From NCBI GenBank assembly GCA_038150265.1, contig JAYOTF010000011.1, positions 11,130-75,129 on the forward strand: DNA of 64,000 bases, in the 5' to 3' direction. Below are positions 2,838 through 44,195 of this stretch, piece after piece. The notes under the pieces are model-generated. The model had not been told where the DNA came from. It worked only from the letters and a program-made list of their open reading frames with translations, and ran no database searches. The position numbers and the translations under genes are program-made. This stretch comes from Deltaproteobacteria bacterium (lineage in GTDB: Bacteria > SAR324 > NAC60-12). The number at the start of each line of letters is the position of its first letter. The first letter of the stretch is position 1.

Positions 2838-5684
2838 TCAGTCATGATCAGGCATCAGGTAATAGGCTTCTTCCACCGGCTTGAGCGGACGCTTGAACCA
2901 CAGGGGCCGTCTCAGGTTGTCTGGACCGGGAGCCGGGCGGGTCAGGTCGACCCACTTGCGGTAGACCTCCATGGACTTGTTGGTGTCCACAAACACGTCG
3001 CCATAGGCATCGCCTGGCTGCGCCTTCTCGATCCGGACCTTCTGGTGCCAGCAGTGCATGCCGCTGATGGGGTCCGGATGCACGGGGAAGGTGATGTTCT
3101 GATGCACCCCCCCATCTTCCCAGAAGATCCGCTGAGTATCCGGATCCTCGGTCTTGGAAGGCTGCACCCCTTCCTGAAAGCGCATCTTCCACTGGCCACC
3201 ACCGAGTTCTTCGATGTTGGCCAGGTTGGTGCCCCAGCGGTTGCCCTCCGGATCCTGACTCCGTCGCCAGCGTCCGAGGTGGTGGGAGCAGGCAATCACC
3301 CCCGGACGGATCGCCTCGGTCGCCCACAACCGGACCACAAAGAAGCCGATCTCGGTATTGACCCGGACCAGATCCCCCGTCTTCAGGTCAAGGCGCTGTG
3401 CATCCGAGGTGTGCATCCAGAGGGGGTTGCGGTTCGAGATCTCCATCAGCCACTTGGCATTGGCTGACCGTGAGTGGATCAACGTGGGCAGCCGGTAGGT
3501 GGGAACCAGGGGGAAGTCCCCGGCGGCTCGATCCATTTGCGACTCATGAATGTGGCTCTGGATGTAGCCTGGAAGGGTGTACTCCGGCCACTTCCAGTCC
3601 TTCATCGTCTTGGAGAAGATCTCCAGCTTGCGGGTGGGCGTGGGGAAGCCGGTGCGGCCCGAGCCTTCTGCCTCCACCCCAACGACTTTTCCATCCTGCC
3701 AGACCACTCCGTTCACCGGATTCCCCTCAACCGGCTTGCGGTACAGCTCATACAGCTCCTTGCTCACCTCATAGGCGCCGTGACGCTGCATGTACTCGAG
3801 AGCCGTCAGCCCTTCCTTCTCTGCGGCTTCCGGAAGCCCCGGGACTTCCTCGAAGATGTAGCGGTAGTACTCGTCAATGGTCATCTTCTCGCCCGGACGG
3901 TAGGGAGACTCGAAGTACTTGCGGATGCCGAGGGAGCCATCCGGATCGACCCGCCAGGAGAGTTCCATCCAGAACTCGTCTTCCTCCCACACCTCGCCGG
4001 GGTTGGCTTCATACGTAAACTGAACGGGCTTGCCCTGGCGACGCTGGTACTCCCGGAGGACGGGCTGCCGGAACCCGACCCACAGGCCGGAGTGCGTCTC
4101 GTAGCTGACCACGTCATGGCGCTCCGGAGAGTGTCCCATTGGCAGCACGTAGTCGGCAAAAAACGCGGTTTCGTTCCAGGTGGGCGTCAACGCGGCATGC
4201 AGCCCAATCATCGACTCATCCCGCAGCGCCTCAATCCAGGTAAAGCCATCCGGATACGTCCAGACCGGATTGAAGACCCGGGTGAAGTACACCGACATCT
4301 TGCCCCGTCCCTCCTTGAGGAAGTGCGGGAGCAGGAAGCTCATTTCGTAGTGACACAGGGGCCACTCCTGCGGAAAGTGCAGCTCGTTCCACACCTTGTG
4401 AGGCGGAGCCGGGTTGGGCACATGCGGATGGAACTTGCCCCAGGAGTTGGGGAGGGTGCCCCCCTTGGTGCCAACGCTTCCGGTGAGAACATTGAGGAAG
4501 TTGAGGCAGCGAGCGACCTGCCAGCCTCCCAGGTTGCCAACAGCCGCGCTGCGCCAGACGTGAGCCGAGAAGCGAGGGCCGGCGTTGCCGATGCGACGCG
4601 CCACCTCAATGACGTTGGCCGCCGGTACGCCCGACTCCTGCTCAGCAAATTCCGGGGTGTAGGACGCGTAATGCTCCTTGAGCTTCTCAACAAACACCTC
4701 AAACTCGTGCGGCTCATCCGGATGATCAGCCGCCATCCAGTCCTGCCAGTTGACCCACTCCCGCAGGAACGACTCGTTGTAGAGGCCTTCGTCCAGAATG
4801 ACCTTCGCCATGGCCAGCAGCACCGCCGGCTCGGTTCCGGGAGACGTCGGAAGCCAGTAGTCAGCCCGGCTTGCCGTGTTGGAGAGCCGAATGTCCATCA
4901 CCCCCACCTTGGCGCCGTTGTTCTTGGCCTCAATGATGCGCTGGGCGTGTGGATTGAAGTAGTGGCCGGCTTCCAGGTGGGAGCTGATGAGGAGGATGAA
5001 CTCTGCATTCGCATAGTCCGGAGACGGACGATCGGCTCCCCCCCAGAGCATGTACCCCAACCGGGCCGCTCCGGAGCAGATGTTGGTGTGGCTGTTGTGG
5101 CCATCGACCCCCCACGCGTTGAGGACGCGCTCAATGTATCCCTCGTGTCCTGGACGCCCGACGTGGTACACGACTTCATCGCGTTTTTCCGCCAAGAGGG
5201 CTTCCCGGATGCGCCCGGCGATGTCGTCCAGCACCGAGTCCCAGCTGACGCGTTCCCACTGTCCAGACCCGCGCTCCCCCTTGCGTTTCATGGGGTACAG
5301 CACCCGGTCCGGATCCTCCAGCTGGTTGATCGTCGCCGGCCCCTTCGCACAGTTGCGGCCTCGGCTTCCGGGGTGGTGCGGATTTCCTTCCAGCTTGCGC
5401 ACCTCGCCGGTGCGCTTGTCGATGTAGGCCAGCAGGCCACACCCGGCCTCGCAGTTGAAGCAAACGGTGGGGACCAGCGAGTACTCCTTCTTCTCCTTCC
5501 GGGCCCAGCCGGTGGCTTCATACTCGGTCCAGTGGTCCCACTTTTCATAAGGCGGGAAGTTCTTCAGGTCCGGGTCGTCTCCCGGAACCGCTTCCGGGCT
5601 GGGGTCCGCCGGCTTTTCCAGCTTCGGCAGCACGCCCATTTTTTCAGCGGTGGTTTCAATCCAAGACGGCTTAAACACAGGCAT
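2838..5684 (-). CDS. molybdopterin (bis-MGD) oxidoreductase catalytic subunit, Psr/Ttr/Arr-related, no Tat signal
   Basis: FS0 motif CFNCEAGC..NCAKG, RVLYPMKRKGERGSGQWERVSWD, HTNICS (probable Cys Mo ligand), ADYVLP, and a C-terminal dinucleotide-binding domain (LWMHTSDAQRLDLKTGDLVRV). Confidence 0.9.
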   Translation of the reverse strand: MPVFKPSWIETTAEKMGVLPKLEKPADPSPEAVPGDDPDLKNFPPYEKWDHWTEYEATGWARKEKKEYSLVPTVCFNCEAGCGLLAYIDKRTGEVRKLEGNPHHPGSRGRNCAKGPATINQLEDPDRVLYPMKRKGERGSGQWERVSWDSVLDDIAGRIREALLAEKRDEVVYHVGRPGHEGYIERVLNAWGVDGHNSHTNICSGAARLGYMLWGGADRPSPDYANAEFILLISSHLEAGHYFNPHAQRIIEAKNNGAKVGVMDIRLSNTASRADYWLPTSPGTEPAVLLAMAKVILDEGLYNESFLREWVNWQDWMAADHPDEPHEFEVFVEKLKEHYASYTPEFAEQESGVPAANVIEVARRIGNAGPRFSAHVWRSAAVGNLGGWQVARCLNFLNVLTGSVGTKGGTLPNSWGKFHPHVPNPAPPHKVWNELHFPQEWPLCHYEMSFLLPHFLKEGRGKMSVYFTRVFNPVWTYPDGFTWIEALRDESMIGLHAALTPTWNETAFFADYVLPMGHSPERHDVVSYETHSGLWVGFRQPVLREYQRRQGKPVQFTYEANPGEVWEEDEFWMELSWRVDPDGSLGIRKYFESPYRPGEKMTIDEYYRYIFEEVPGLPEAAEKEGLTALEYMQRHGAYEVSKELYELYRKPVEGNPVNGVVWQDGKVVGVEAEGSGRTGFPTPTRKLEIFSKTMKDWKWPEYTLPGYIQSHIHESQMDRAAGDFPLVPTYRLPTLIHSRSANAKWLMEISNRNPLWMHTSDAQRLDLKTGDLVRVNTEIGFFVVRLWATEAIRPGVIACSHHLGRWRRSQDPEGNRWGTNLANIEELGGGQWKMRFQEGVQPSKTEDPDTQRIFWEDGGVHQNITFPVHPDPISGMHCWHQKVRIEKAQPGDAYGDVFVDTNKSMEVYRKWVDLTRPAPGPDNLRRPLWFKRPLKPVEEAYYLMPDHD

Positions 5685-5687
5685 GAT

Positions 5688-7292
5688 TCAGCTCAACGGA
5701 AGCAGTTGAGGCACCTGGACCCACAGTCGGACCAGATGCCAGAGACCAAAGAGGGAAAGCAGGGCGGCGGCCAGCAGCACCAGCGGCTCAAACGAGGCCA
5801 CCAGCAGCGCCAGTGGCAGCACAGAACCGAGCCCAACGCCATATTGCCAGAAGGCCTGGCGGTAGGGGCCCTTGGTGATGAGGTGCAGCGCCCGGTGCGA
5901 ATCTTCGGTGGGGTGCTCAGAGTACACTTCAGCGGCCAGCACCACGAGTTGCAGCACCAGTCCCGCCAGCAGGGTGTAGGTCATGGGCTCCTGATACGCC
6001 TGCAGCGTTCCGGAGACCAACGAGAGGCACAGCCAGACTGCAGGCCCGGCAATGAGTGCATGGAGGAACATGTGCAGGGCCATCAGCGGGCTCTGCCACA
6101 GGTCCCGCCCCTTTGCCTGCCCAAAGAGGAACGCGGTGTAGATCGCCGTCATGGCCCCCAGCACAATCAGCAGCACGCCTGCCGCATTGGCGAGCCACGA
6201 GGCGCCGATCCAGTCCAGGAGCAGCCACGCCGTCAGCAAGCCCCCGTACGCCGTGATGATGTAGGCGCCCTTGACCAGCCACGAGGTCGGGTTCGGACGC
6301 AGCAGCACATACAGGAAGCGGGTGGGCTGGTCGAGGTCCTTGACCAGCAAGGCTCCGGTGGCTCCCAGGAAGACCAGGGCCAGCAGCACTGACGCCCAAA
6401 GCGGCTCCGTGGCCGCCTGATCTCCCAACAGGTACGCAAGGAACGACACCATCACCACACCCGCCGACACGGCCTTGGTGAGGATGTACGCGGCCACTTC
6501 CCAGCCCCACATCACCCCCTTTGCCGGAGCATCGTACACGCGGCGCGCACTGGAAGCCCGGGTGGTCGGCTGGTTGTGGGTCTCAATGTGGTTCCGGATG
6601 GAATCCAGCGCGGCAGAGGCTTCTCCCATCACCTTGGCAAACTTCTCATCTCGCGAATCGGTCGCAGTGGCATGGTGCCCCACGCCTCGGGACTGCGAAC
6701 TCCACATGTAGGCGTTGTCCTGAGCAGCCATTCCGGGGGTCAGGGAGGCTTCGTCGCCTTCGATGTAGAAGAGCTTCGGACGGGTGCCCTTCTCTGGCTT
6801 CCGGACGGTCACCTGCTGGCGTGAAACCAGCTGCGAAATCTTCGACTGCGGGTTGTCCAGGTCTCCGGAGATGATCGCCTGTGTGGGGCAAACGTTCACA
6901 CAAGCCGGCTCCAGGTTCATCTCCACCCGGTGTGCGCAGTAGTTGCACTTTGCGGCGGTGTGCGTCTCGGGGTCAATGTAGATTGCATCATACGGACACG
7001 CCTGCATGCACGCCTTGCAGGCAATGCAGCGGCGGTTGTCAAAGTCCACAATGCCATCTGCGCGCACATGCAGCGCCTGCGTGGGGCAAATCGTTGTGCA
7101 CGGTGAGTCCTCGCAGTGGTTGCACCGCATGACGGAAAACAGCCGGCGCGTATTCGGAAACACGCCCTTTTCAATGTACTTCACCCAGGTCCGGTTGACG
7201 CCAATGGGGACGTCATGCTCAGACTTGCAGGCAACGGTACAGGCGTGGCACCCAATACAGCGACGGTTGTCAATGACAAAGCCGTAGTTCAT
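5688..7292 (-). CDS. fused 4Fe-4S dicluster (PsrB/NrfC-like) and NrfD/PsrC-like membrane anchor
   Basis: Start moved to ATG 7292 (MNYGFVIDNRRCIGCHACTVAC). Four Cys-cluster motifs (CNHCEDSPCTTICP, CIACKACMQACP, KCNYC..PACVNVCP), then WGWEVAAY, DLDQPTRF, SWLVKGA and about 8 hydrophobic helices. Confidence 0.9.
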   Translation of the reverse strand: MNYGFVIDNRRCIGCHACTVACKSEHDVPIGVNRTWVKYIEKGVFPNTRRLFSVMRCNHCEDSPCTTICPTQALHVRADGIVDFDNRRCIACKACMQACPYDAIYIDPETHTAAKCNYCAHRVEMNLEPACVNVCPTQAIISGDLDNPQSKISQLVSRQQVTVRKPEKGTRPKLFYIEGDEASLTPGMAAQDNAYMWSSQSRGVGHHATATDSRDEKFAKVMGEASAALDSIRNHIETHNQPTTRASSARRVYDAPAKGVMWGWEVAAYILTKAVSAGVVMVSFLAYLLGDQAATEPLWASVLLALVFLGATGALLVKDLDQPTRFLYVLLRPNPTSWLVKGAYIITAYGGLLTAWLLLDWIGASWLANAAGVLLIVLGAMTAIYTAFLFGQAKGRDLWQSPLMALHMFLHALIAGPAVWLCLSLVSGTLQAYQEPMTYTLLAGLVLQLVVLAAEVYSEHPTEDSHRALHLITKGPYRQAFWQYGVGLGSVLPLALLVASFEPLVLLAAALLSLFGLWHLVRLWVQVPQLLPLS

Positions 7293-7657
7293 AGCAATCT
7301 CGTGATGAGCGAAGGGAACAGGTCCCCAGGTTAAGGCGCGGCCAAACAGATGAGACCCAACTTCACAATGCGGTTGGCGCATTCTTCCCCGAAAGTTGGA
7401 CCCGGAAATCCGAATGGATTTTGCCTCTGAAGTCAATACTAAAATCGCTTTAACCCTCACTTTTGAGAACCCTATTCTCGATTTTCTGAGGCACCCTTCC
7501 CCCTCAATTCCACATTCATGATAAATTTGTCTTCTGCCTCACCGGCATTATGGGTATAACCTAGCGTTACCGTCACGGCCTTGCCCTGCCTTCGCTTGGG
7601 GGAAAGGGAAAAGGCCCACGCGTTTCCAGCACTCCTTCAGGCCCACGACTGACGTTC

Positions 7658-8821
7658 ATGAAACCGTTCCCCCTCCTCCTCAATCTGCACGGGCGCCACT
7701 GTCTGCTGATCGGAGAGGCAGAGGCCCTGGCGCAGCAGGCCGCGTTGCTGCTGCAATCCGGCGCAACGGTTTCGCTGGCCACACAGGCCCCGGGCCCGGC
7801 TCTTCAAAGCCTGCTCCACCAGCAACACGTCACCGCCTACACGGGTCCGATGGACGCCCTCGACTTCCGGGAGTTTGCGCTCGTGCTGGCCTCCACCACC
7901 GACCCGGAGTTCAATCAGTGGCTGCGGGCTCAGAGCAGGCGAGCGGGTACCTGGGTGCACCTGTTGGAAGATCCGGAGCACTCGGACTTCCAGCTTCCTC
8001 CTCGTCCCACGGTTCCGGAAGCCCCTCCTGCAGCGCAGGCGCGTTCCGGCCGAGGACACGTGGTGCTGGTCGGAGCAGGCCCAGGCGATCCGGAGCTGCT
8101 GACCCTCCGGGCGATCCGGCACCTGCAGGCTGCCGAGGCCATCGTGTTCGACCGCCTGGTCTCGCGGGAGATCCTCGAGTTTGCCGCGCCCGGAACCGAG
8201 CTGGTTTATGCCGGCAAGAAGAAGGCTCACCACTTCATGCGGCAAGAAGAGATCAACCAGACTCTGGTCTCGCTTGCTCAGGCGGGCAAGCGCGTGGTGC
8301 GCCTGAAGGGGGGAGACCCGTTTATCTTTGGACGAGGCGGGGAGGAAATTGAAGCGCTGCTGGAAGCCAACCTGGACTTTGAGGTGGTGCCCGGCATCAC
8401 GGCCGCGTCCGGATGTGCCACCTATGCTGGCATTCCGCTCACCCACCGGGACCATGCTCAGTCCTGCACCTTTGTCACCGGACACTCCAAGAAGCCGGAC
8501 CTCGACATCCGCTGGGAATCGCTGGCCGACCCCCGGCAGACGGTGGTGTTTTACATGGGCCTGAGCAACCTCGAGCTGATCTGCGAGCGCCTCCTTGCTC
8601 ACGGACGGGCGCCCCAAACGCCTGCTGCAGCCATTCACAGCGGAACCACCTCTCATCAATCGCTGGTGCTGGGCACGCTGGCCACGCTCCCGGAGGTCAC
8701 CGAGGCGTCTGAATTCCGGCACCCGACCCTGATCATTGTCGGGGAGGTCGTTGCCCTTCATGAGCGCTTTCAGGCGCATCACACCTACCCCCTCGCCTTG
8801 AGTTCCACAAACACCACCTGA
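7658..8821 (+). CDS. cobA: uroporphyrinogen-III C-methyltransferase with a degenerate, shortened CysG N-terminal domain
   Basis: C-terminal SUMT motifs [46 protein letters not shown] and FYMG. The N-terminus [16 protein letters not shown] resembles the start of CysG. Confidence 0.85.
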
Positions 8822-8877
8822 ATGACGGTTGCTCCAACCGCCCCTTGTTTCCTGTTTCTTCCTTCCTGGTTTTCTTC

Positions 8878-9813
8878 ATGCACTTTCGTTCCCCTCACCC
8901 CTTGCTCCTGCTTGGAGTCCTGCTGCTTCCGCATACTGCCTGGGCAGTCCCCTCCTCAGCCTCAGCGACCTGGCCCGCCTGGGTCTGGCTCCTGCTGCTG
9001 CTGCTGACCGCCTTTGTGATTGGACTCTTCGGCGTCATGGCGGGCATTGGCGGTGGCGTCCTCTTTGTTCCGTTGGTGAGCAGCTTCTTCCCCTTTCATA
9101 TTGACTACGTCCGGGGCGCCGGGCTCTTCATTGCCCTGGGGAGTTCTCTCGCCGCCACGCCGTTCTTGCTGAGGCAGAACCTCGCCAGCCTCAAACTGGC
9201 CATGCCGGTGGCCCTGGTCGCCTCGGTCTTCTCCATTGTCGGAGCCCAGCTGGGCCTCTGGCTATCGGGGCTCGACCCGCGCTACGTTCAGGGGGCACTG
9301 GGCGTGACCATCATTGGCATTGGCGCCTTCATGCTGGGGGTCCCCCCCAACCGGCAGGAGAACCTTCCGGAACTCGACAGCCTGGCCAAACGGCTGGGGC
9401 TCTTTGGACACTACCGAGCCGACTCGGGTGAGCTGGCAGACTGGACGGTGTTCCGGACGGCAAAGGGGCTGGTGGGGTTCATTGTGGTGGGGCTCGTGGC
9501 AGGAATGTTCGGGTTGGGGGCTGGCTGGGCCAACGTCCCGCTGATCAACCTGGTGATGGGCGTTCCCCTGAAGGTGGCGGTTGCCACAAGCAACCTCTCC
9601 ATTTCCATCGCATCTCCCGCGGCCTGGGTGTACCTCAACCAGGGGGCGGTGCTTCCGGCCCTGGTGGCGCCCTCCATGCTGGGGGTCATGTCGGGCTCCC
9701 TGATTGGCTCCCGCCTGCTCCCATACGTCCCCACCTCGGTCATCCGGAAGATGGTGATCGGCGTTCTCTTTCTCTCAGGTTTTCGCTCCCTACTGAAAGG
9801 ATTCGGATGGTAA
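8878..9813 (+). CDS. sulfite exporter TauE/SafE family membrane protein
   Basis: Duplicated glycine motifs GVMAGIGGGVLFVP and AGMFGLGAGWANVP, VPLKVAVATS, about 8 TM helices. The start (ATG 8878) is uncertain. Confidence 0.85.
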   Translation: MHFRSPHPLLLLGVLLLPHTAWAVPSSASATWPAWVWLLLLLLTAFVIGLFGVMAGIGGGVLFVPLVSSFFPFHIDYVRGAGLFIALGSSLAATPFLLRQNLASLKLAMPVALVASVFSIVGAQLGLWLSGLDPRYVQGALGVTIIGIGAFMLGVPPNRQENLPELDSLAKRLGLFGHYRADSGELADWTVFRTAKGLVGFIVVGLVAGMFGLGAGWANVPLINLVMGVPLKVAVATSNLSISIASPAAWVYLNQGAVLPALVAPSMLGVMSGSLIGSRLLPYVPTSVIRKMVIGVLFLSGFRSLLKGFGW

Positions 9814-10219: not shown

Positions 10220-10726
10220 CTAAAACGCCTCAGGGCAGTAGTGCGCGTCAATCGGCGCTCCGGCGCCAGAGACCTCTGGGCCAATTGGGCTCCAGCGCCG
10301 GTCTGGGCTCGCCAGAAAGGCAGCAAAATCGGCAGGCACGGATTCGGGCTCAATCCGGGTCACCCGCTCCAGGTCACACTCATACAGCCGGTACTGAACG
10401 ATCCACCCCTGGTCCACATCAAGCGCCTGGAGCTGGGCCAGTTGAAAACGCCGGGGCGGTGTTCCAGCCAGCTCCAGGCTCCGGGAAACACGAGGATTGT
10501 CAAAGATGAGGCGGGTGACCGGCTGAAAGAAGAGGTGGGCCACATTGTAGAGGTCGGGCTCCCGGATCTCCTGCAGCTCCACAAACTGCGGATGCTGCGC
10601 CTCCACGATCTGGCGCATCTGCTCTCCCCACTGCAAGCTGGTCCGGATGGCATACCCCCACCCCAGCACAATGAGGAGCAGGCTCACCACCTGAACGCGA
10701 CGGTTGGAGAAGAGCCGGCGGATCAT
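10220..10726 (-). CDS. hypothetical protein with N-terminal membrane anchor
   Basis: 168-aa ORF with a 4-nt overlap to the channel gene stop and an N-terminal hydrophobic helix. Confidence 0.6.
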   Translation of the reverse strand: MIRRLFSNRRVQVVSLLLIVLGWGYAIRTSLQWGEQMRQIVEAQHPQFVELQEIREPDLYNVAHLFFQPVTRLIFDNPRVSRSLELAGTPPRRFQLAQLQALDVDQGWIVQYRLYECDLERVTRIEPESVPADFAAFLASPDRRWSPIGPEVSGAGAPIDAHYCPEAF

Positions 10727-13227
10727 TTGCGCATGAATTGCTGAACCCGTTGCTTGCCCTTCTCCAGCAGGTGGCTCAGCTCCTCCTGAGGCGCTCCCAG
10801 CAGGTGGGAAATCTCTCCCAGCAGCTTCTGCTCTTCCGGAGCAAAGTCTCGGTCCACCACCGCAATGCTCAGCAGCTCCTCGAGCACCAGGGTGCGATCT
10901 TCGTCGCTGATGTCGATCGGCTCCACCTCCGGATGCCGCCCCAACAGGATCATCTCTTCGAGCTCCTGAACGTGTTCCGGATTGTCCAGCATCCGGACGG
11001 CGCCATGCAGGAAGGTCCGCTCATGCAGGTCGATGGTGTCGTCGGCCATCACCATGGCGACCACGGCCTTGGCGTACCAGAAGCGGTGCTCGGCATCAAA
11101 GTGCTGGAGCAGCTCGGCGCTCAGCTTCGGCCCTTCTTCCTCGTTGAGCGTCTCCTCCATCTCCCGGAGGACCCGAATCGACTTGAGGACCTTGTGGGCC
11201 TGTTCGTTGCCAGAAAGCGCAGACTCCCGGAACCAGTAGTAGGCCTCCTCCCGGTTCTTCGGCACCCCCTGGCCATTGAAGTTCATGATGCCCAGGTTGT
11301 ACTTGGCCCGGGCGTGATCCTGAATGGCCGCCTGATGGAACAGCCGATACGCCTCCCGGAGGTCGCCTCCGGACTTGGTCAGCTCCACCGCCTGCCGAAA
11401 CCAGTCCTCCGCCTCAGTCGGGTTCTGTGCTCGGACCGCTGCGGCCTGGGTCATGCGATCAGCGGCTTCATCGGCAAGCAGGGTGTGGTGCTTCTCAAAG
11501 AAGCTCTGGTTGCGGATGGTCTCCTCCAGCGCCAGGAAGATGAGGCTGTCTCCCGCATGCACCATCAGGTCCGGGTGCGGATTGACGATCAACTTGCGGT
11601 TGTGGCCACGGAGCAGGCCAACCGGCAGCTGATTCGACTGGCGCTTCACATTCAGCACCGTCTCCACCCACTTCAAGGAGGCCCAGGAGCTGGAAAGCCG
11701 CCGGACAAAGAGGCTCTGGACGTGGGCCTCTTCCGAGAGGATCTGGGTCACCAGCGTCCCGTACCCTTCGTTGGTCGCCGTCTGAGAGAGGATCGGCGCA
11801 ATCAGCTCATCCGCCTGCAGGCAGAAGTCGCACCCGACCTTCATCAGCTGCACATCAAAATCCGGCTCCCGGTAGCTCGCAATCGTAAAGATCTCGCCGC
11901 CGGTTTCCTGCTCCAGACGCAGAACGGCCATCAGGGTCTGTCCATCGTGCTGGTGGTCGATGAAGGCCACCTTGGCCTCGGTTGCCCGGGCCTTCCGGAA
12001 GGAGGCTTCGCTGTTGGAAACGCCTTCAATCCAGTCCACCTCCAGGCCTTCCGGAAAGTGCTCCAGGCGGGGGCTTTCCGTGATCACCACCACCCGTTCC
12101 CGGGTCCGTGCCTTCTGCAGCTCCCTGAGCAGGCGTTCAATGAACATCAGGTTATCGGAGCTGATCACCAGGTGTCCCTCCACCCGCAGGTCTTCCATTC
12201 CGGAAATTTCGAGAGCGTGCTCCTCCTGGTCTCCCTTGGGACGAGTGGCCGGGGGTTGGAGCTGCAGCACCTGTGTGCCCTTGGGCAGCACATGATCGGC
12301 CGGAGGATTCACCAGCACCATTTCATCCTCAAACAGCCCGATTGGCATGACGCCCTGCTCGCTCTTGAGGTGAGCAATCACGTCAATCCAGGCCTTGCCT
12401 TCGAGTTCCGGAGAGAGTTCCTGATTGACCAGTCGGTGCCCCTTGGGCTGGTTGACCACCTCATGCACCCATGCGGGCCCTCCCTGAGACCGGTAGGCCT
12501 GCACCATCAGGGGCACATAGACCTCATACGGATCCAGCGCATGGTCGCACCCAATTTCCTGGAAGTGCTTGCGGTTGCTCTCACCGGTGTACTGCGCCAT
12601 CGTCACCACCTCCCCGTTGCTGAGGCTCTCCAGCTGCAGCACCGTCATCAGGGTCAGGCTGTTCTCCTGGTAAGAGACGTATGCAATCTTGGCCTTTTCG
12701 GCAGACGCCTTGCGCAGGATGTCAATGCTGTAGCTCTCTCCAGAGATCCAGGGGAGCTTCTTGTAGCGTGTGGTGATCAGGGGGTGTTCGTCTCCCGGAC
12801 CAATCAGAGCGACCTTGTTTTGCTCCAGAAACGACTGGTTTTGTGCCAGGATTTCTTCCATGAAGGTGGGGCTGTCGGAACAAATCAGCACATGATCCTT
12901 CTCGGAAACCGGATCCAGCCCACGTTCGCGTCCGCTCTTGAACTCCTCAAACTTGGCTGTCACCAACGAGACAATGATGGAGAAGTTCACAATCCCGGCC
13001 GCCATGACGAGGAAGGTGAAGATCCGCCCCCCCACCGTGATGGGGGCCATGTCTCCATATCCGACGGTGGTGATGGTCTCCACCGTCCACCAGAGGGCAT
13101 CAAAGGGGGTGTTGAAGGTGCTGTTTTCGTCTCCCGTCAGGATGTATTCAAAGAAATAGATCCCGAGGGTGCTGGTGAGCAGCAGCAGCGGCAGCATCAC
13201 CAAAAAGATAAATCGCGCTTTGTTCAT
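10723..13227 (-). CDS. 2-TM potassium channel with tandem RCK domains, Sel1 repeats and a C-terminal TerB-like domain
   Basis: Pore and filter DALWWTVETITTVGYGD; two RCK units (VNPPADHVLPKG, VNPHPDLMVHAGDSLIFLA); Sel1 repeat AKYNLGIMNFNGQGVPKNREEAYYWFRESA; TerB-like AMVMADDTIDLHERTFL..IAVVDRDFAPEEQKLL. Confidence 0.9.
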   Translation of the reverse strand: MNKARFIFLVMLPLLLLTSTLGIYFFEYILTGDENSTFNTPFDALWWTVETITTVGYGDMAPITVGGRIFTFLVMAAGIVNFSIIVSLVTAKFEEFKSGRERGLDPVSEKDHVLICSDSPTFMEEILAQNQSFLEQNKVALIGPGDEHPLITTRYKKLPWISGESYSIDILRKASAEKAKIAYVSYQENSLTLMTVLQLESLSNGEVVTMAQYTGESNRKHFQEIGCDHALDPYEVYVPLMVQAYRSQGGPAWVHEVVNQPKGHRLVNQELSPELEGKAWIDVIAHLKSEQGVMPIGLFEDEMVLVNPPADHVLPKGTQVLQLQPPATRPKGDQEEHALEISGMEDLRVEGHLVISSDNLMFIERLLRELQKARTRERVVVITESPRLEHFPEGLEVDWIEGVSNSEASFRKARATEAKVAFIDHQHDGQTLMAVLRLEQETGGEIFTIASYREPDFDVQLMKVGCDFCLQADELIAPILSQTATNEGYGTLVTQILSEEAHVQSLFVRRLSSSWASLKWVETVLNVKRQSNQLPVGLLRGHNRKLIVNPHPDLMVHAGDSLIFLALEETIRNQSFFEKHHTLLADEAADRMTQAAAVRAQNPTEAEDWFRQAVELTKSGGDLREAYRLFHQAAIQDHARAKYNLGIMNFNGQGVPKNREEAYYWFRESALSGNEQAHKVLKSIRVLREMEETLNEEEGPKLSAELLQHFDAEHRFWYAKAVVAMVMADDTIDLHERTFLHGAVRMLDNPEHVQELEEMILLGRHPEVEPIDISDEDRTLVLEELLSIAVVDRDFAPEEQKLLGEISHLLGAPQEELSHLLEKGKQRVQQFMRK

Positions 13228-13649: not shown

Positions 13650-15170
13650 TCAGTCCAGGTCTCCGAGCGTGATGATCTGATCCGAAGGTGCCAGGACAAA
13701 GGAGCGTTCCAGGCTGGGACACCAGTCAATGCGACCGGTTTCCGTCGACTCCTCGCCATAGAGAATGCCCAAAAACACCTCGCCTTGCGTCTGAGCCGCC
13801 AGCACCAGGTCTGCCGTCTCCAGAGAAGCGGTGCTTTCGGGGAAGAGCGTCTCCACGGTTCGGGAGCGTACGCCCTGGGTTCGGTTTTCCACCAGTTGGG
13901 TCCAGAACGGGCTTTGCTCCGGATTCAGCACGGCCCGCAGCAGCACCCCCAGGAGCAGGGACTGCGACGACGTCGCCTGAACGCCCACTCGGGCATACGC
14001 CGCTTCTTGCCCCCACTGGCGCACCTCCACCACCCAATCCGGACGCGCGTCCAGCTGCCGGGCCTGGCGCTGGAGTTGCCGGCAGAGGCGCCACGCCTGA
14101 GCCCCTTCATCAGGATTCAGGATCAGCACCGAGGCATACTGATTCAGCTTCAGAGCCCGGAGGATTTTCGGATCCTGCACATCCAGGGAGCGGACCTTCA
14201 GGTTCAGGCCTGGCAGCTGGTGCTGGAGGTCCTGAATGGACTCGGCGGTCAAGGGCACCCCGGGCTCGGTGAGCACATGCAGAATGGAGCCATCCGGAAG
14301 CAACTCGGCAAGCTGTGTCAGCAGAGGCTCGGCCGTACGGGTCCAGCGCACCACCAGGTGCACCCCCGGACGCAGCACCGGATCCTGCGGCTGCAGACGC
14401 GGCACCTGCGAGGTCGCTGGCGTTGCACGAAAATCCAGGGGCGTTTCGGCCGGCATCCAGATCAAGAGCTCATCCTCGCCCTGAAGCTCGGTGGTGGGCG
14501 GAGGCGCAATGAAGATCCGGCCATCCGGAAAGCGAATCCCCACGGGTTGCCCCTGATAGGCCCGCAGCTGGGCCTCTCCAAAGCGCATGCCCTGCCAGCC
14601 GTCTTCCGGAGCATAGCGGCGCAGGTCTCCGGTGTGGCAAAAGCCCTCCAGGCACCGGGCCTGAAAGTCCGGACGCAGCGAGTTCGCCATCAGCCACCCC
14701 TGCAGCTCGCCTTCCACAAAGACGGTGGCATCCGGAAGCCACTCCAGCACCTGCTGGCGTCCTTCCTCAGTTTCCATCACCACCCCGACGCGTCCCAGGT
14801 CGGCGACGGTCAGGATGCTGGCGAGGGTCAGCAGGGTTTCGTCTTCCGAGGCCTCCGGCAGCACCAACACGCCGACCGGCCCTGCAAGCGGCAACGACTG
14901 CAGCAGGTCGCCATCTGACACCTGGCCCGGGATGACCTGTACCGACACCGGAAGGTGCGTCTGCAGAGCAGCCACGGCGGCAGACACTTCCAGGACGTCT
15001 GTTTCCGGGAGCAGCACAATCTGCTCCAACTCCAGGTTGAGTTGGCTGAGCCAGCGAAGGAGGCTCACCTGGCGCAGGCTTCCGCCGCAGATCAACAGGC
15101 TCTTCGGGGGACGCTGCAGGGCCTCCCAGTTCTCTGTCGCCGTGATCGGCTCAAACGGTTCCAGTTCCAT
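13650..15170 (-). CDS. soluble tandem-RCK protein (CASTOR/POLLUX/TrkA-like), no pore
   Basis: LLICGGS, GIRFPDGRIFIAPPPTTELQGEDELLI, HLVVRW, and C-terminal FLGI..GRIDWCPSLERSFVLAPSDQIITL. No TM pore or filter sequence. Confidence 0.6.
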   Translation of the reverse strand: MELEPFEPITATENWEALQRPPKSLLICGGSLRQVSLLRWLSQLNLELEQIVLLPETDVLEVSAAVAALQTHLPVSVQVIPGQVSDGDLLQSLPLAGPVGVLVLPEASEDETLLTLASILTVADLGRVGVVMETEEGRQQVLEWLPDATVFVEGELQGWLMANSLRPDFQARCLEGFCHTGDLRRYAPEDGWQGMRFGEAQLRAYQGQPVGIRFPDGRIFIAPPPTTELQGEDELLIWMPAETPLDFRATPATSQVPRLQPQDPVLRPGVHLVVRWTRTAEPLLTQLAELLPDGSILHVLTEPGVPLTAESIQDLQHQLPGLNLKVRSLDVQDPKILRALKLNQYASVLILNPDEGAQAWRLCRQLQRQARQLDARPDWVVEVRQWGQEAAYARVGVQATSSQSLLLGVLLRAVLNPEQSPFWTQLVENRTQGVRSRTVETLFPESTASLETADLVLAAQTQGEVFLGILYGEESTETGRIDWCPSLERSFVLAPSDQIITLGDLD

Positions 15171-15282: not shown

Positions 15283-16401
15283 TCAAGCTTTGTCACGGGG
15301 GAACTGATGAACCCGCGGAATTCGCTCGGTCAGCCCGGTCAGAATCTCGTAGGCAATGGTCCCGGTTCGAGACGCCAGTTCCTCAGCCGTCACCTCCTGC
15401 GCGCCTTCCTGACCGATCAGCGTGACCCATTCCCCCACTTTGGCCTCCTCCGGAGTGGCAATCATGAGCTGATCCATGCACACCCGCCCCAGGATCGGGA
15501 CGCGTTCCTCCCGGAACAGAACCGGCCCGCCATTGGAGAGGTGGCGTCGGTAGCCATCGCCATACCCGACCGGAAGCGTGGCCACTGGAGTCGGCTCCGT
15601 TGCCTGCCACGAGGCGCCATAGCTGACGGTTGCTCCCGGAGGCACCGTTTTGCTAAAGGACACCTGCGCCTTGAGTGAAAGCGCCGGCTGAACCGGAACC
15701 GTCCGGTGACTCAACGGGTCGGGGTAGACCCCATAGAGCAGCAGCCCGGGGCGGACGCAGTCGAAGTGCGCGTCCGGAAAGTGCAACACGCCTCCGGAGT
15801 TGGCCATGTGCCGCATCGGCAGAGGCTGCCCCAGTTGCTCCCAAACCCTTGATACGGCCTCAAAGGCTTCCAGCTGCAACCGATTCATCGGGTGCTCCGG
15901 GTCGTCTGAGCAGGCAAAGTGCGAGTAGAGGCCCCGGACGTCCACCCAGCGCGAGCGCGCCACCGCCTCCAGCAGAGGCCGGGCCTCTGCCGCCCGCACG
16001 CCGGTCCGTTCCATGCCGGTGTCAATCTTGAGCTGAACCGGAAGTCGGGTCTGGTGTTTCTGTGCCAGCGCCTCCACGGCTTCCAGCATCTGCAGGTTCC
16101 CCAGGCTGAAGTCGAGGTGGTGGGTGTAGAAGTGGGGGAGCTGGTGAGGCTGGTGTCCGCCCAACACCAGGATCGGCGTGGTGATTCCAGCGGTCCGGAG
16201 CGCCATGCCTTCTTCCACCAGCGCCACAGCCAGCCACTCCACCCCCAGGTGTTCGTACCAGCGAGCCACCTCCACCAGGCCATGACCATAGGCGTTGGCC
16301 TTGACCACCGCCATCACCTGAGGCGCCCGGACGTGCTGGCGGATTGCCCGCAGGTTCGAGGCCAGGGCCGCCATGTCAATGAACGCTGCAGCAGGACGCA
16401 T
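15283..16401 (-). CDS. alr: alanine racemase
   Basis: MAVVKANAYGHG, KIDTGMER, SHFACSD, HMANSG, VRPGLLLYG, GYGDG, GRVCMDQ, TIAYEIL. Confidence 0.95.
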   Translation of the reverse strand: MRPAAAFIDMAALASNLRAIRQHVRAPQVMAVVKANAYGHGLVEVARWYEHLGVEWLAVALVEEGMALRTAGITTPILVLGGHQPHQLPHFYTHHLDFSLGNLQMLEAVEALAQKHQTRLPVQLKIDTGMERTGVRAAEARPLLEAVARSRWVDVRGLYSHFACSDDPEHPMNRLQLEAFEAVSRVWEQLGQPLPMRHMANSGGVLHFPDAHFDCVRPGLLLYGVYPDPLSHRTVPVQPALSLKAQVSFSKTVPPGATVSYGASWQATEPTPVATLPVGYGDGYRRHLSNGGPVLFREERVPILGRVCMDQLMIATPEEAKVGEWVTLIGQEGAQEVTAEELASRTGTIAYEILTGLTERIPRVHQFPRDKA

Positions 16402-17024
16402 CAGCCGTGCTGACTGTAAAAGCCGAAGATGGCGGCACAGAACAGCTCAAAGTTCTCCACCTCGGCATCTTCAGCAATGCGCTCCAGGGTTTCCAGGAAC
16501 GGATCAAAGCCGTAAAACTGCCGAAAGATTTCGGGAATGCGCACCCGGATCCTTTGCTCTTGCAGCAGGGGCACCAGTTCATTGACAATCAAGGGAAGGG
16601 CTTCTGGCGATTCCCGCAACCGCCGCAGGGTGTGCTGGAAGAAGCCCTGGACACGGGTGGAGAGGCGCTGCGGATTGCCCGGAAGCTGCGACGAGGCCGG
16701 AAACTTCCCCGGCTTGCGCGGAGGCTGCCCCAGCGCAGTGGAGGCGACCTTGCGTTTGCGGTGGGGGGAATCGGTCGACACCACCCCCAGCCCATAGGCG
16801 CCTTCGGCTTCGAGCTTCCGGAACAGCTGGCTCGCTTTCTCGGCATTGAGCTCACTCTCCGCATGCGGCGGAGCGATCGTGCGTCCCAGAAACGGATTCT
16901 TCCGATTCCGGTACACGCCGTACGTCTCGGCACCAAACTCGTAGGGCAGGGGCTGCACTCCCTTGATTTTTCCTCCCTCCTGATTGAGGATGAGGGGCAC
17001 TTTCTCTGAAGGCTTGTCGCTCAT
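16401..17024 (-). CDS. hypothetical protein
   Basis: 207-aa ORF whose stop codon overlaps the alr start codon by 1 nt; coding-like codon usage. Confidence 0.65.
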   Translation of the reverse strand: MSDKPSEKVPLILNQEGGKIKGVQPLPYEFGAETYGVYRNRKNPFLGRTIAPPHAESELNAEKASQLFRKLEAEGAYGLGVVSTDSPHRKRKVASTALGQPPRKPGKFPASSQLPGNPQRLSTRVQGFFQHTLRRLRESPEALPLIVNELVPLLQEQRIRVRIPEIFRQFYGFDPFLETLERIAEDAEVENFELFCAAIFGFYSQHG

Positions 17025-38949: not shown

Positions 38950-40269
38950 TCAGTCTTCTTCAGGGAGCAGCAGGTTCAGCAGAATCGAGATGATGGCGAC
39001 CGGCAACAGTCCGGAGGTCATCAGCACCTTGAGGTTCGCGGGCACATGTTGCAGGGCAGAAGGAACCGACTGCAGCCCCAGTCCCACCGAAAGCGCCACC
39101 GCCAGAATCACCATGTTGCGGCGGCTCCACTTGACGTCGCTGAGGATGTTCAGTCCGGCGCTCACGACCATCCCAAACATCACGATCACGCCTCCTCCCA
39201 GCACCGAGATCGGCATGGACGCAATGATGGCCCCGATCTTGGGCACCAGCCCGCAGATGATGAGGAACACGCCTCCAATGGTGACAATGGTGCGACTCAT
39301 CACCCCCGTCAAGGAAATGAGTCCGACGTTCTGACTGAAGGACGTATTGGGCAAGCCTCCGAAGATGCCGGCAATCGCGGTTCCAAGTCCGTCGGCAAAG
39401 GTCCCCCCACTGAGTTCGCGGTTGGTCGCTTCACGGTTCGCTCCGCCCTTGGTGATTCCGGAGATGTCCCCAACGGTCTCAATCGCACTCACCACCGCCA
39501 TCAGGCACATCCCGATCACGGCTGCAGCATTGATCTCAAAGCCGTACTTGAACGGCACCGGGACCTCAAACCAGCCCGCCCGGGCGATGCCCCCAAAGTT
39601 CACTTCTCCCAGCAGCATGGCCACCAGGTAGCCGGCAACCAGTCCGACCAGAATCGCTGCGCTCGAGAGGACGCCCTTCGAGGAAAACTTCACCCCCAGG
39701 GCCACAACCACCACCGTCAGCGCCATGGTCCAGTTGGTCAAGCTTCCAAATTCCGGTTTCCCCATGAGGGGGACCCCGCCTGCGGCATACTGAATGCCCA
39801 CCGGAATCAGGGCCAAACCAATGGCCATCACCACCACACCCGTGACCAGAGGCGGTAGCCAGTTCCGGATCTTGCTGATGACGGTTCCCAGCAGCGTGTG
39901 AAAGACCCCGCCCAGGAAAATGGCGCCAAAGAGCGCTCCCATGCCCGCCGTTTTCACAATCGGGATCATCACGGGAATGAACGCAAAGCTGGTCCCCTGC
40001 ATCACGGGCAGGCGGGCGCCAACGGGTCCGATGCCGACCGTCTGAAAGAGGGTCGCAATGCCGGCAAACAGCATCGACATCTGGATCAGGAAGACGAGGT
40101 CGGGAGAGCCGAAACTGTATCCGGCCGCCAGCCCCACGATAATTGCCGGTGTGAAGTTGCTCACAAACATGGCAAGGACGTGCTGCAGTCCCAAGGGAAT
40201 GGCCTTGGAAAGCGGGGGCACAAAGTCTGGATCCCTTAGCTGTTCGGGGGTGATGGTGTCGTTACTCAT
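38950..40269 (-). CDS. NCS2 uracil/xanthine/urate permease
   Basis: RBS CAGGAG then ATG 40269; GLQHVLAM, GARLPVMQGTSFAF, ETVGD, NAT signature SFSQNVGLISLTGVMSR. Confidence 0.93.
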   Translation of the reverse strand: MSNDTITPEQLRDPDFVPPLSKAIPLGLQHVLAMFVSNFTPAIIVGLAAGYSFGSPDLVFLIQMSMLFAGIATLFQTVGIGPVGARLPVMQGTSFAFIPVMIPIVKTAGMGALFGAIFLGGVFHTLLGTVISKIRNWLPPLVTGVVVMAIGLALIPVGIQYAAGGVPLMGKPEFGSLTNWTMALTVVVVALGVKFSSKGVLSSAAILVGLVAGYLVAMLLGEVNFGGIARAGWFEVPVPFKYGFEINAAAVIGMCLMAVVSAIETVGDISGITKGGANREATNRELSGGTFADGLGTAIAGIFGGLPNTSFSQNVGLISLTGVMSRTIVTIGGVFLIICGLVPKIGAIIASMPISVLGGGVIVMFGMVVSAGLNILSDVKWSRRNMVILAVALSVGLGLQSVPSALQHVPANLKVLMTSGLLPVAIISILLNLLLPEED

Positions 40270-40389
40270 TGTCAATCTCCTGAAGCGGGAGGTTTCAAGG
40301 AGCGCACTGACGGGGGAGCGAGCCAGAAGCGATTCCCAGAATGATGAGCCTGGGGACAGGCTCGGACAGGTGCCTTGCGGCACAAAAAC

Positions 40390-40899
40390 TCATGGAGGCG
40401 GCAAAAGGAGCTTCTCCAGTCGCAGGTGGGTGATCTGGATCTGTTCCGCTGCTGCGGTGCCCAGCTCCTGCTGGCGATCCGATCCCAGCCGCGCGGTGAG
40501 GAGGGTCAGCAGCTCCGTCGCTGATTTTCCGGAGGCACAGACGATGTAGATGAAGCCGAACTTCTGTTCATACTCGGCATTCTTCAAGGCCATCTCCGCC
40601 TTGATCCGTTCATCAGCACTCTGCATGCCTGCCTGCTCTCGGGAGGTCCAGGAGGCGGTGTTTTGTGCCACCTCCGGAGGCTTGCTGGCGCCAATGCGAG
40701 GGTGTGCCGCAAAGGCCTCCAGCCAGTCGGCTTCTTCCATCTGCTGCCAAACGGCCTCCGCTTGCTCGTGCAGGGCCTCGGCGCTGGCAAAGGGCCGGCA
40801 CGCCAGCATGCCAGCCACCCAGCGCTGCGCTCCGCAGCACTTCTGCAGCGCTTCCGCACAGGCGGCGTCCGGAAGCGCGTTCAGTTCCTCAATCGTCAT
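40390..40899 (-). CDS. uraD: OHCU decarboxylase
   Basis: EAFAAHPRIG, SREQAG, YEQKFGFIYIVCASG, EQIQITHLRL. Confidence 0.92.
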   Translation of the reverse strand: MTIEELNALPDAACAEALQKCCGAQRWVAGMLACRPFASAEALHEQAEAVWQQMEEADWLEAFAAHPRIGASKPPEVAQNTASWTSREQAGMQSADERIKAEMALKNAEYEQKFGFIYIVCASGKSATELLTLLTARLGSDRQQELGTAAAEQIQITHLRLEKLLLPPP

Positions 40900-42323
40900 C
40901 AGTTTCGTCGTGCCTCTACAATTTTCCGGAAGGACCCGGCCTGGATTTCTTCCACTGTCACGCCAGCGGCTTCCACATCTTCCGGATCAATGGCCCCGGA
41001 ATTCAGGGCTCGGAAGAAGAAGTTCAGCAGCCCCTGTCCGGTGGCCGCATCATCAAAGACGTCTCCACTCAGGGTCGCCTTGGACGCCTGTTCCACAAAG
41101 TTCCTCAGCCGGGTGGTCGACTCCTGAACCTGCTCCAGGAAGAACGCCGCACACGCCGCATACCGTACGGGAATTTGCGCCGGATGCAAGTCCCATCCCT
41201 GATAAAATCCATGAGCCAGGGAGCGCCGGACGTGTCCGTAGCTGAGCCGCCACGCTCGGTGGACGGTCTCCAGGTTTTCCCGGACCTGCACCGGCGACAG
41301 GGAGTCTCCCCGGTGTGGCGCCACGGGCATGATGTTCGTTGCGCCGTCGGACAGAAAGATTCCCGTGCCACCAAACGCCACCTTCATGACGTGCCGAGCG
41401 AAGTCACACACGGCACTGTCCATCTTCTGGTAGGCGGCAATGAGGTCGCAGGACGCGGTGTAGTCGTAGGTCCCGAAGTGTGCCCCAATGCAGCGACCGC
41501 GCGCCGCGTTGGCAATCTTCCGGGCGGTGACTTCTCCGTTCGCATTGAAGACCGACTGCGTGGTCTCGATCATCACTTCCATCTTCAGGGTCCCCGGGGC
41601 CAGGCCCTTTTCGGCTTCAAACACCTCAAACAGCTCCACCAGCGCCGCGGCTTGCTCCGGAACCTCCACCTTCGGCAGCGTCACCACAAAGTTTTCCGGA
41701 AGCGCCCCTCCGGATTCTTCCAGCAGCGTGCTGAGGAACAGGTCCAGCGTCCGGATGCCCCGGTCGGAAAACTCGCGGTTGAACGGCTTGATGCGGATGC
41801 CAATGAAGGGGGGCAAGAGGCCCTGCTTCATGCCAGAGACCACCTCCTTGGCGCCCTGCACCGCAACGGCGTCTTCCTCCTCATCCGGACGGATGCCGAA
41901 GCCATCTTCGTAGTCGAGCCGGAAGTCTTCCACCGCCTCGCGTTCCAGCTTCTTGACCACCTGGGCATACACGCGCCACGCCAGCCACACCGGTTGATTG
42001 GCCGGAGAAACGCCCCGGTCTTCGACATCCTGCACCAGGGCTTCTACCTCGCTCTGGCGGGTCGGCAGCGTCTCGGCTCCAGCAAGTCCGAGCGCCTGCG
42101 CAAACACAACAAAGTTTGGAGCGTAGTCCTGCAGATTCCGGATGGCAAGTGTTCCCATCTTGGCGGCCAATTCCGCCTTGAAGAGGTGGGCGCCTCCGTA
42201 GATCGTGTGCACCGGTTGGCGGGCGAGGGACTTGCCCGGGTAGTCGAGGTTGAACTGCTGGTTGGCTTCAGACAGACGGCTCAGCGTGGAGCCAATGCGT
42301 TCGGGAGTAAGCGTTCGCGTCAT
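40899..42323 (-). CDS. HpcH/HpaI aldolase / citrate-lyase-beta-like protein (DUF6986-type, from recall)
   Basis: RQPVHTIYGGA, EDFRLDYEDGFG, GIRIK, VTLPKV, EVMIET, HFGTYDYTA, LSDGATNIMP, GFYQGWDLHPAQ; ATG 42323. Confidence 0.75.
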   Translation of the reverse strand: MTRTLTPERIGSTLSRLSEANQQFNLDYPGKSLARQPVHTIYGGAHLFKAELAAKMGTLAIRNLQDYAPNFVVFAQALGLAGAETLPTRQSEVEALVQDVEDRGVSPANQPVWLAWRVYAQVVKKLEREAVEDFRLDYEDGFGIRPDEEEDAVAVQGAKEVVSGMKQGLLPPFIGIRIKPFNREFSDRGIRTLDLFLSTLLEESGGALPENFVVTLPKVEVPEQAAALVELFEVFEAEKGLAPGTLKMEVMIETTQSVFNANGEVTARKIANAARGRCIGAHFGTYDYTASCDLIAAYQKMDSAVCDFARHVMKVAFGGTGIFLSDGATNIMPVAPHRGDSLSPVQVRENLETVHRAWRLSYGHVRRSLAHGFYQGWDLHPAQIPVRYAACAAFFLEQVQESTTRLRNFVEQASKATLSGDVFDDAATGQGLLNFFFRALNSGAIDPEDVEAAGVTVEEIQAGSFRKIVEARRN

Positions 42324-42348
42324 AACAGTCTCGGTTGGGAAAAAAGAG

Positions 42349-43362
42349 TTAAATGGCCTTGGTGCCAAGGATGCGCAAGCGACTGACCCCCCCATCTGGG
42401 TAGATGCTGAGGCGGATGTGCGTCACGGGGCCGAGCTCCTCGAGCTCTTCCTCAAAGAAGTGCTGGGCATCGGCCTCCAGCTTCACTTCCGTGAGCAGGG
42501 GCCTCCACGGCAGGTCTGCCGCCTCCCAGCTCTCGGGGTTCATGCCCTCCGGAAGGTTGAGGGCTTCCAGGCTGCAGCGGTCCGGGTAGTTGCCCTTGAA
42601 GTGGGCGGTGTCGACTTCCACTTTCTGGACAAACCCGGCACAGGCGAGGCGGAGGATGGCCCAGTCGTTTCCGGGTTCGCGGCGCCGGCGGGTTTCCCAA
42701 CCGTCTCCCATGTTGATGCCGCGTCCGGGAGCCACCAGGTTGTCCATGTGCCCAAAGTGCTGGTCGTTGCAGGCGAGGGCCTTGCCTCCGAGGCGGGACG
42801 ACGCCAGGTCGATCACCTCGTCCAGGCCAATGGCCTTCCAGTCCACCGAAGGTTCCCCATACACCCGCAGGCGCGCCACGCCTCCGTCGGGGTAGATGTG
42901 CAGGCGGATGTGGGTCCAGCGCTGGGAGTTCTTGATCTCAAAGAAGTTTTGGGTGTTCCCCTCCAGTGGCGACTTGGGGAGCAGCTCCGTCCAGGTGGTC
43001 GACTCATCCGGATCGCCCGCAAGCTCACAGGCTTCAACCGAAGCAAACGGAGGGAAGTTCCCCGTGAAGTGATTGGTGTCAATGTCGAGCGCATGGATGC
43101 GTCCGGGCGCGCCCAGGCGGAGGGTGCACCAGTCGTGTCCGGGAGTGCGCTTGCGGCGTGACTCCCAGCCATCCATCCACTTGCCGTGGTCATCAAACTT
43201 TCCCGGAATGAAGATGCCCCGTCCGGGCTTGATGAGGTTTTCCTTGGCGGCAAAGAAGTCATCCGTGGCATCCAGCACGACCGTATCCAGCCGCTCTTCG
43301 GCCAGGTTGAGGAAGCGTTGGGAGTAGCGATCGTCGTGCGGGTTTTCAATAAAGAGTTCCAT
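42349..43362 (-). CDS. alc: allantoicase
   Basis: Two repeats: WMDGWESRRKR..DIDTNHFTGN..IYPDGGVARLR and MGDGWETRRRR..VDTAHFKGN..IYPDGGVSRLR. Confidence 0.95.
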   Translation of the reverse strand: MELFIENPHDDRYSQRFLNLAEERLDTVVLDATDDFFAAKENLIKPGRGIFIPGKFDDHGKWMDGWESRRKRTPGHDWCTLRLGAPGRIHALDIDTNHFTGNFPPFASVEACELAGDPDESTTWTELLPKSPLEGNTQNFFEIKNSQRWTHIRLHIYPDGGVARLRVYGEPSVDWKAIGLDEVIDLASSRLGGKALACNDQHFGHMDNLVAPGRGINMGDGWETRRRREPGNDWAILRLACAGFVQKVEVDTAHFKGNYPDRCSLEALNLPEGMNPESWEAADLPWRPLLTEVKLEADAQHFFEEELEELGPVTHIRLSIYPDGGVSRLRILGTKAI

Positions 43363-43368
43363 AGGGGC

Positions 43369-44055
43369 TCAGCTGAAGTATTCCGGATGTTGATGCTGAA
43401 GGGTTTCGATGTGCGACAGCACATCGGTGAGGTGCTTCTGGAGGGCCTGTGCCGCCTGCTCCGGATGATGGGCGGCAATGGCTTCAAAGAGCGCGCGGTG
43501 CTGGTGAACGATTTGCTCCAGGTACTGCGGCAGGGCGTACGTCAGGACCCGGACTCGGTCCAGCTGCAGCTTGGCGCTGTCGATGACGCGCCAGACCTTC
43601 TCCGAGTGCCCGACCCCGGCAATGAGGCGGTGAAACTCCTGATCCAGCCGGTACAGCTCCTCGGTGTTCGCACGCTCCAGGCAAAACTGCTGGTTCCGGA
43701 GGTTGAACTCCAGGGCTTCCACCTGCTCGGCAGCAATCGACTCGGCAGCATGCTGCACCGTTGCAGCCTCCATCGTCATCCGGATGAAGTGATCTTCTCG
43801 GACGTCCTGCAGGTTGATCCGAGACACAAAGGTGCCCCGCTGCGGCAGAATCTCCACCAGGCCTTCGTAACTCAAGCGCTGGCAGGCTTCCCGAATCGGA
43901 GTCCGGGACACCCCAAAACGCTGGCAGAGGTCCTTCTCCGGAATCGCTTCCCCCGGACGAAGCTGAAACCCAATGATCTCTTCACGCAAGATTGCATGAA
44001 TCTGCTCCACCGTGTTCTGGCGGGGGTTCAGCTTCAACGCAGGAACCGATGACAC
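43369..44055 (-). CDS. GntR-family regulator with FCD domain
   Basis: RBS GGGAGGAG then GTG 44055; LRPGEAIPEKDLCQRFGVSRTPIREA, PQRGTFV, DQEFH..H..H. Confidence 0.92.
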   Translation of the reverse strand: MSSVPALKLNPRQNTVEQIHAILREEIIGFQLRPGEAIPEKDLCQRFGVSRTPIREACQRLSYEGLVEILPQRGTFVSRINLQDVREDHFIRMTMEAATVQHAAESIAAEQVEALEFNLRNQQFCLERANTEELYRLDQEFHRLIAGVGHSEKVWRVIDSAKLQLDRVRVLTYALPQYLEQIVHQHRALFEAIAAHHPEQAAQALQKHLTDVLSHIETLQHQHPEYFS

Positions 44056-44113
44056 AGCGCTCCTCCCAACTCCAAGCAACTCGTTCACAGAATCAAGTAA
44101 CAATTTTCTTGAT

Positions 44114-44163: not shown

Positions 44164-44195
44164 GGGTTCCGTGCAGGAAGAATGAAATCGGGGGC

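Follow-up and report, generated by a model that had tools for sequence, protein, structure and literature searches.

A tandem-RCK potassium channel with a C-terminal Sel1-TerB tail in SAR324 bacteria

A 64,000-nucleotide stretch of contig JAYOTF010000011.1 from a SAR324 bacterium (assembly GCA_038150265.1; hereafter "the window") encodes, on the reverse strand at 10723..13227, a K+ channel in which a two-helix pore is followed by two RCK domains, a linker, Sel1 repeats and a TerB-like domain. This domain architecture is real and confined to one lineage; among tandem-RCK K+ channels it is a variant that has apparently not been described before. Literature searches found no description of a pore-RCK-RCK-Sel1-TerB protein, in agreement with a preliminary description of the window that knew of no characterized channel with this combination. 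The function that we favor, at about an even chance of being correct, is that of a housekeeping K+ channel of the tandem-RCK type, like GsuK and Slo, that is modulated by a ligand; it would serve ion and osmotic balance through a cation pocket in RCK2 and receive a second input from its TerB tail. The hosts are uncultivated SAR324 bacteria from marine and estuarine samples. Occurrence was surveyed in 88 genomes of the phylum, and residue conservation was counted over up to 71 homologs.

Domain architecture

The channel gene and its parts are as follows (coordinates in the window, all on the reverse strand).

10723..13227: channel gene, 834 amino acids (aa), pore-RCK1-RCK2-linker-Sel1x2-TerB (open reading frame, Pfam, protein search and structural model)
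12928..13227: two-helix K+ pore, residues 1-100 (Pfam Ion_trans_2; hydropathy gives two transmembrane segments)
13051-13068: selectivity filter TVGYGD, between the two transmembrane helices, with a pore helix
12238..12906: RCK1, residues 108-330, with C116-S117-D118 in the beta-A loop where GxGxxG is expected
11518..12186: RCK2, residues 348-570, 27% identical to RCK1
12148-12174 and 11944-11958: candidate cation pocket in RCK2, S357-D358 and D424-H425-x-x-D428 respectively (alignment and conservation)
11428..11517: variable linker, predicted local distance difference test score (pLDDT) below 50 at residues 580-599
11146..11427: Sel1 unit, with a degenerate repeat (11314-11427), a Pfam-grade repeat (11206-11313) and a capping helix
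10726..11130: TerB-like domain, with acid pairs D729..E736 and D792..E799 and with R737, H741, E757 and E758 enriched in channel tails

Pfam recognizes the two-helix pore, two TrkA_N stretches, one Sel1 repeat and TerB in the open reading frame (ORF), all above their cut-offs, and the AlphaFold2 model of the monomer (mean pLDDT 83, from 28 sequences) consists of a pore, two RCK domains, a low-confidence linker and a helical tail. These results confirm the domain order of the preliminary description, whose filter and other named motifs were found where it had placed them. By its filter and transmembrane helices the ORF is a K+ channel of the KcsA/MthK pore class, for which K+-selective, tetrameric conduction is predicted. 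The filter reads TVGYGD in 58 of 71 homologs and TVGFGD in 10, with single cases of TLGYGD, TIGYGD and a gap. Two RCK domains per chain, placed straight after the pore, correspond to the tandem arrangement of GsuK and Slo.

In the tail, PF08238 scores above its cut-off and the fold is that of Sel1-like helical hairpins. Modelled by itself (pLDDT 88), the tail forms a pair of Sel1-type hairpins. Of the Sel1-like repeats announced earlier, one is of Pfam grade and the second is degenerate in sequence. The TerB-like assignment has held up, with PF05099 at 39.3 bits against a cut-off of 24.4 and with two D..E hairpin motifs whose acids are conserved. A profile built from 18 SAR324 TerB-like domains matches the structures 2h5n and 2ou3, and 2jxu weakly, whereas the structure-search lists for the tail model, in which TerB was modelled only together with Sel1, are filled by Sel1 matches.

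Distribution and integrity of the gene

The protein search returned 92 matches, of which 58 besides the query span at least 98% of it at 45-90% identity; the members with a named taxon belong to SAR324 or carry its older names. An intact pore-RCK-RCK-Sel1-TerB gene is present in 25 of the 88 genomes and a broken or partial tailed copy in three more, and all genomes with a tailed channel fall inside the window's own family (45 genomes). Within the genus g2, 13 of 18 genomes hold it. In a scan of all species, 78 of the 80 channel loci listed lie outside SAR324, and all of these lack the tail. A paralog in the same genome (L001:413-2950, G000:C64) is 48% identical, has a TVGFGD filter and carries a C-terminal extension common to other clades; heteromers of the two are possible. 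Since there are 58 full-length homologs, intact copies in 25 genomes and this paralog, the fusion is not an assembly chimera, a concern that had been raised at the outset and that is also answered by contigs from other sequencing runs which span or bridge the gene. At least half of the stretch is present in five runs (three studies), four of them labelled estuary or aquatic metagenome and the fifth without a label.

The tail is absent from two clades. Tailless tandem-RCK cores occur in seven of the 88 genomes, two of which also hold a six-helix form. This six-helix (Ion_trans) channel shares the tandem RCK ring but is tailless (L038:2617-4749 and L039:5372-7504, in G083 and G084 of genus g40) and amounts to a bacterial Slo-like architecture. 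The window's genome additionally encodes TrkH, KefC-like proteins and a single-RCK channel of conventional type, in which GxGxxG is present.

The RCK ring and its candidate cation pocket

None of the 71 homologs has GxGxxG in the beta-A loop of either RCK domain, so that the replacement of this motif, noted earlier for the window's gene, extends to all of these homologs and sets them apart from GsuK-type nucleotide-gated channels. In RCK1, S117 and D118 are each found in 70 of 70 homologs. The preliminary description had taken the tail to gate in place of nucleotides. The analysis does not support this, because the tailless relatives have the same C/S-S/A-D loops, likewise without GxGxxG; MthK also lacks the motif at this loop, and RCK2 keeps a near-invariant set of acids and histidine (D358 in 71/71, D424 in 70/71, H425 in 67/71 and D428 in 71/71). 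This set points to cation gating at the ring, with the putative RCK2 site as its likely location. D424 aligns with the MthK Ca2+ ligand D184, whose equivalent is thus kept in RCK2 only, while RCK1 keeps none of the ligands D184, E210 and E212; the ring does not fall into the MthK-type Ca2+-gated class.

GsuK of Geobacter sulfurreducens (PDB 4gx0, 4gx2, 4gx5) is the top Foldseek match of the channel, at 14% identity, and shares its two-helix K+ pore and tandem RCK domains (PMC3510474). The GsuK activation pocket lies in the RCK2 loops of the candidate pocket, but its RCK2 has GxGxxG and binds ADP/NAD+, which sets it against the SAR324 channel with no such motif in either domain. GsuK also lacks the Sel1-TerB tail. 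MthK (PDB 1lnq and others) is the best sequence match for pore plus RCK (E 4e-18) but has one RCK per chain and no tail. The gating rings of Slo1/Slo2/Slo3 and CASTOR/DMI1 are 14-17% identical and tailless, and the SAR324 channel has no voltage sensor. The modelled ring fold is closest to the CASTOR and Slo rings (17% identity to CASTOR); the RCK profile search gave no CASTOR match. CASTOR conducts Ca2+ and has different sites, D442/D444 and E493 (PMC6697748).

Conservation and mobility of the Sel1-TerB tail

The TerB acids are retained in the channel tails as strictly as in free TerB proteins (D729 65/65, E736 65/65, D792 61/63, E799 63/63). E757 occurs in 37 of 37 channel tails and in two of 17 other TerB sequences, both of which are split channel tails, and H741 in 33 of 37 against three of 17. 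Other TerB-like domains of PF05099, including those of the DjlA N-terminus and of Shango, Bunzi and Dionysus DinB, are matched by profile and share both D..E pairs; here, however, the domain stands behind Sel1 on ion channels, has R737, H741, E757 and E758 as extra conserved residues, and is found with neither a ter operon nor a defence context. Mean identity is 0.50 in the Sel1 part and 0.50-0.56 in the core. In the G000/G047 pair, the ratio of nonsynonymous to synonymous substitution rates (dN/dS) is 0.018 for Sel1 and 0.073 for TerB.

A tail of the same type is found on an unrelated, pentameric class of channel. In all three genomes of genus g12 it is attached to a PF25539 bestrophin, at about 50% identity to the window's tail, and none of these three genomes (89-93% complete) has a tandem-RCK core. 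Among 76 metagenome loci collected with a tail profile, 66 tails lie behind RCK, five behind bestrophin, three are cut by a contig end and two are generic Sel1. In three bestrophin pairs, dN/dS of the tail is 0.037-0.078; the tail is under strong purifying selection in both settings. To our knowledge, the bacterial bestrophin KpBest has no Sel1-TerB tail. KpBest conducts Na+ and is activated by ATP (PMC8496536); PMC5379921 is a further literature source.

The core tree, unrooted and built on 21 of 38 rows, requires at least two changes in tail presence and rejects a single clade of tailed channels (approximately unbiased test, p 7e-5), which leaves two tail losses, or one gain and one loss. 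The tail is an accessory, portable element, since the tailed channels do not form one clade and one genus bears it on a bestrophin. In a tree of tails (LG+G4, 24 of 32 rows), those of the bestrophins cluster with three g11 channels at 96/96, and the transfer to bestrophin was one event. A free bestrophin gene stands head-to-head with the channel in two of these three (G058 and G059) and in five of 66 metagenome loci; the fusion likely arose by recombination between neighboring genes. The g12 fusion gene lies after a full CASTOR-like gene, and in one case (L036:361-5378, G061) three channel genes follow each other in a row: a pentapeptide-repeat protein with a K+-type pore, a CASTOR/DMI1-like channel and bestrophin-Sel1-TerB.

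Proposed mechanism and alternative explanations

From what is known of the family, four subunits would form a gating ring of eight RCK domains. The ring would probably read a divalent cation, and not a nucleotide, at D358, D424, H425 and D428 of RCK2; Ca2+ would be the most probable ion, and the histidine would allow Zn or Mn. The tail may act as a second, self-contained input on its flexible linker, and it is plausible that the TerB acid pairs bind metal and that the tail tunes opening by docking, in a metal-dependent manner, on the membrane or on a partner; these are the least certain steps. The tail would require neither the RCK ring nor four-fold symmetry, because it is also kept on a bestrophin of the pentameric family.

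Several observations weigh against the proposal of a cation-read ring with a TerB input. The MthK-type Ca2+ site is incomplete, E210 and E212 being replaced in both RCK domains (S/T, H/R); D428, which we take to be a general TrkA_N residue, may be structural; and the spatial clustering of the RCK2 pocket residues and of the TerB acids is something we infer from sequence. Metal binding by TerB domains enters as general background. Of the channel's neighbors in the window, only a CASTOR-like gene is an ion gene; the others are alanine racemase, lytic transglycosylase, TauE and CysG. TerB-like matches occur in 82 of the 88 genomes, with up to 26 matches, and in a sample of 18 the fusion partners of TerB include receiver, STAS, PilZ, MFS, peptidase and DUF2225 domains, so that its presence on two channels may owe something to its abundance and to the adjacency of genes.

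The tail could instead be a scaffold or locator. Sel1 and TerB would then attach to a shared partner or site on the membrane and bring channels together (for example, the K+ channel with bestrophin or a CASTOR-like channel) or aid assembly, as TerB-like domains of the DjlA or LETM1 type might. We consider this rather unlikely, yet in its favor stand a Sel1 part as conserved as the core with the low dN/dS given above, the enrichment of E757 and H741 in channel tails, the head-to-head bestrophin genes and a weak DjlA match (E 0.003). No partner gene is present throughout, however (in g2, bestrophin is found in one of 18 genomes and the CASTOR-like query in none, compared with 13 for the tailed channel), and the acid pairs are retained no less strictly than in TerB proteins that stand free. 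It is distinctly unlikely that the ring has lost its own ligand and that the tail is the primary gate: the family-wide absence of GxGxxG and the strong conservation of the tail would fit, but cores without a tail and with the same loops exist in seven genomes, tail presence changes at least twice on the core tree, the linker is flexible in the model and the RCK2 pocket is near-invariant.

Binding of a small organic ligand by the ring, or of a nucleotide in a non-canonical manner, with the acids holding Mg2+ or being structural, appears very unlikely. Little or no variation is seen at W160, G163, H148-P149-L150 and both G-C-D motifs, which exceeds the needs of a single-ion site, and GsuK binds several ligands (PMC3510474); conversely, an Asp where the glycine loop would be should disfavor phosphate, and the nucleotide motif is missing from all 71 homologs. 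The suggestion of the preliminary description that the channel is a defence depolarization device, with TerB as phage sensor, is highly improbable. It is kept at this level because TerB occurs in defence systems, namely in Shango, Bunzi and Dionysus, the last with a pore former, as well as in tellurite operons (PMC10952713, bioRxiv 2025.09.30.679545 and bioRxiv 2022.11.11.516204, the tellurite operons from the 2025 preprint). Yet PADLOC (2023 release, without Dionysus) matched none of six proteins, a search for viral relatives of the channel found none, and no defence genes lie among 49 sampled neighbors of 23 loci or among 42 scanned window proteins. The TerB_N/TerB_C parts of the defence-type TerB proteins encoded elsewhere in the phylum are missing here, and nothing corresponds to the Shango, Bunzi or Dionysus system models, with their partner TerB_N/C, ATPase, helicase or pore former in a defence context. 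Genus-wide retention, long-lived paralogs under purifying selection, housekeeping and ion-transport neighbors and a flat GC content of the window (0.58-0.66) also speak against it.

It is conceivable, if doubtful, that Sel1-TerB is a new transplantable channel-control module, that is, a metal or membrane-stress sensor which gates or couples unrelated channels regardless of pore family and symmetry. If so, recordings from these channels would be the first to show directly what TerB domains sense. A TerB-channel fusion turns the question of TerB function into a current measurement. Natural controls exist: homologs without a tail, a genome with two paralogs, and a bestrophin that bears the tail. 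The ring is in its own right a bacterial tandem ring, modelled nearest to those of CASTOR and Slo, with an uncharacterized acid/His pocket.

In SAR324, TerB looks like a lineage-expanded signalling module. An iterated profile finds 12 TerB-like ORFs in the window's own genome, and the lineage with the channel tails also attaches TerB to receiver, STAS, PilZ and MFS proteins. Fusions to MFS transporters, STAS, receiver and PilZ domains are seen at L156, L157, L155, L165, L168 and L161 (G045, G041). A widespread family of 460-600 aa, with several copies per genome, combines one or two N-terminal TerB domains with a DUF2225-like C-terminal part (L055:3305-4867, L056:3782-5362, L050, L051, L160).

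Gene neighborhood

Two reverse-strand genes flank the channel.

13650..15170: pore-less CASTOR/POLLUX-type tandem-RCK protein, 506 aa, upstream of the channel across a 422-bp gap
10220..10726: ORF of 168 aa with one predicted transmembrane segment, downstream; its start overlaps the channel stop

The 506-aa protein is 24% identical (E 4e-26) to a 660-aa CASTOR-like protein that itself matches plant CASTOR (6o6j, E 1.5e-48). Its gene is intact and under purifying selection (dN/dS 0.07), and it is possibly a soluble gating-ring subunit. A near-identical form occurs only in G000 and G047, as does the 168-aa ORF beside the channel; a full-length CASTOR-like gene is also present in the same genome (contig C32). 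No Pfam, NCBIfam or PADLOC family was found for the 168-aa ORF or for a 207-aa ORF at 16401-17024 (reverse strand). Across loci the neighbors of the channel vary, the recurrent ones being ion transporters (TrkH, bestrophin, CASTOR-like channels and a KefC-like antiporter, the last near the channel in 39 of 66 loci, which include redundant kin).

The remaining window genes are metabolic and housekeeping. A molybdopterin oxidoreductase with a fused 4Fe-4S/NrfD subunit, a CysG-like methylase, a TauE exporter and DUF1634 at 2838-9813 make up a polysulfide/sulfite-type respiratory cluster, and a purine (urate/allantoin) degradation cluster is located at 38953-46432.
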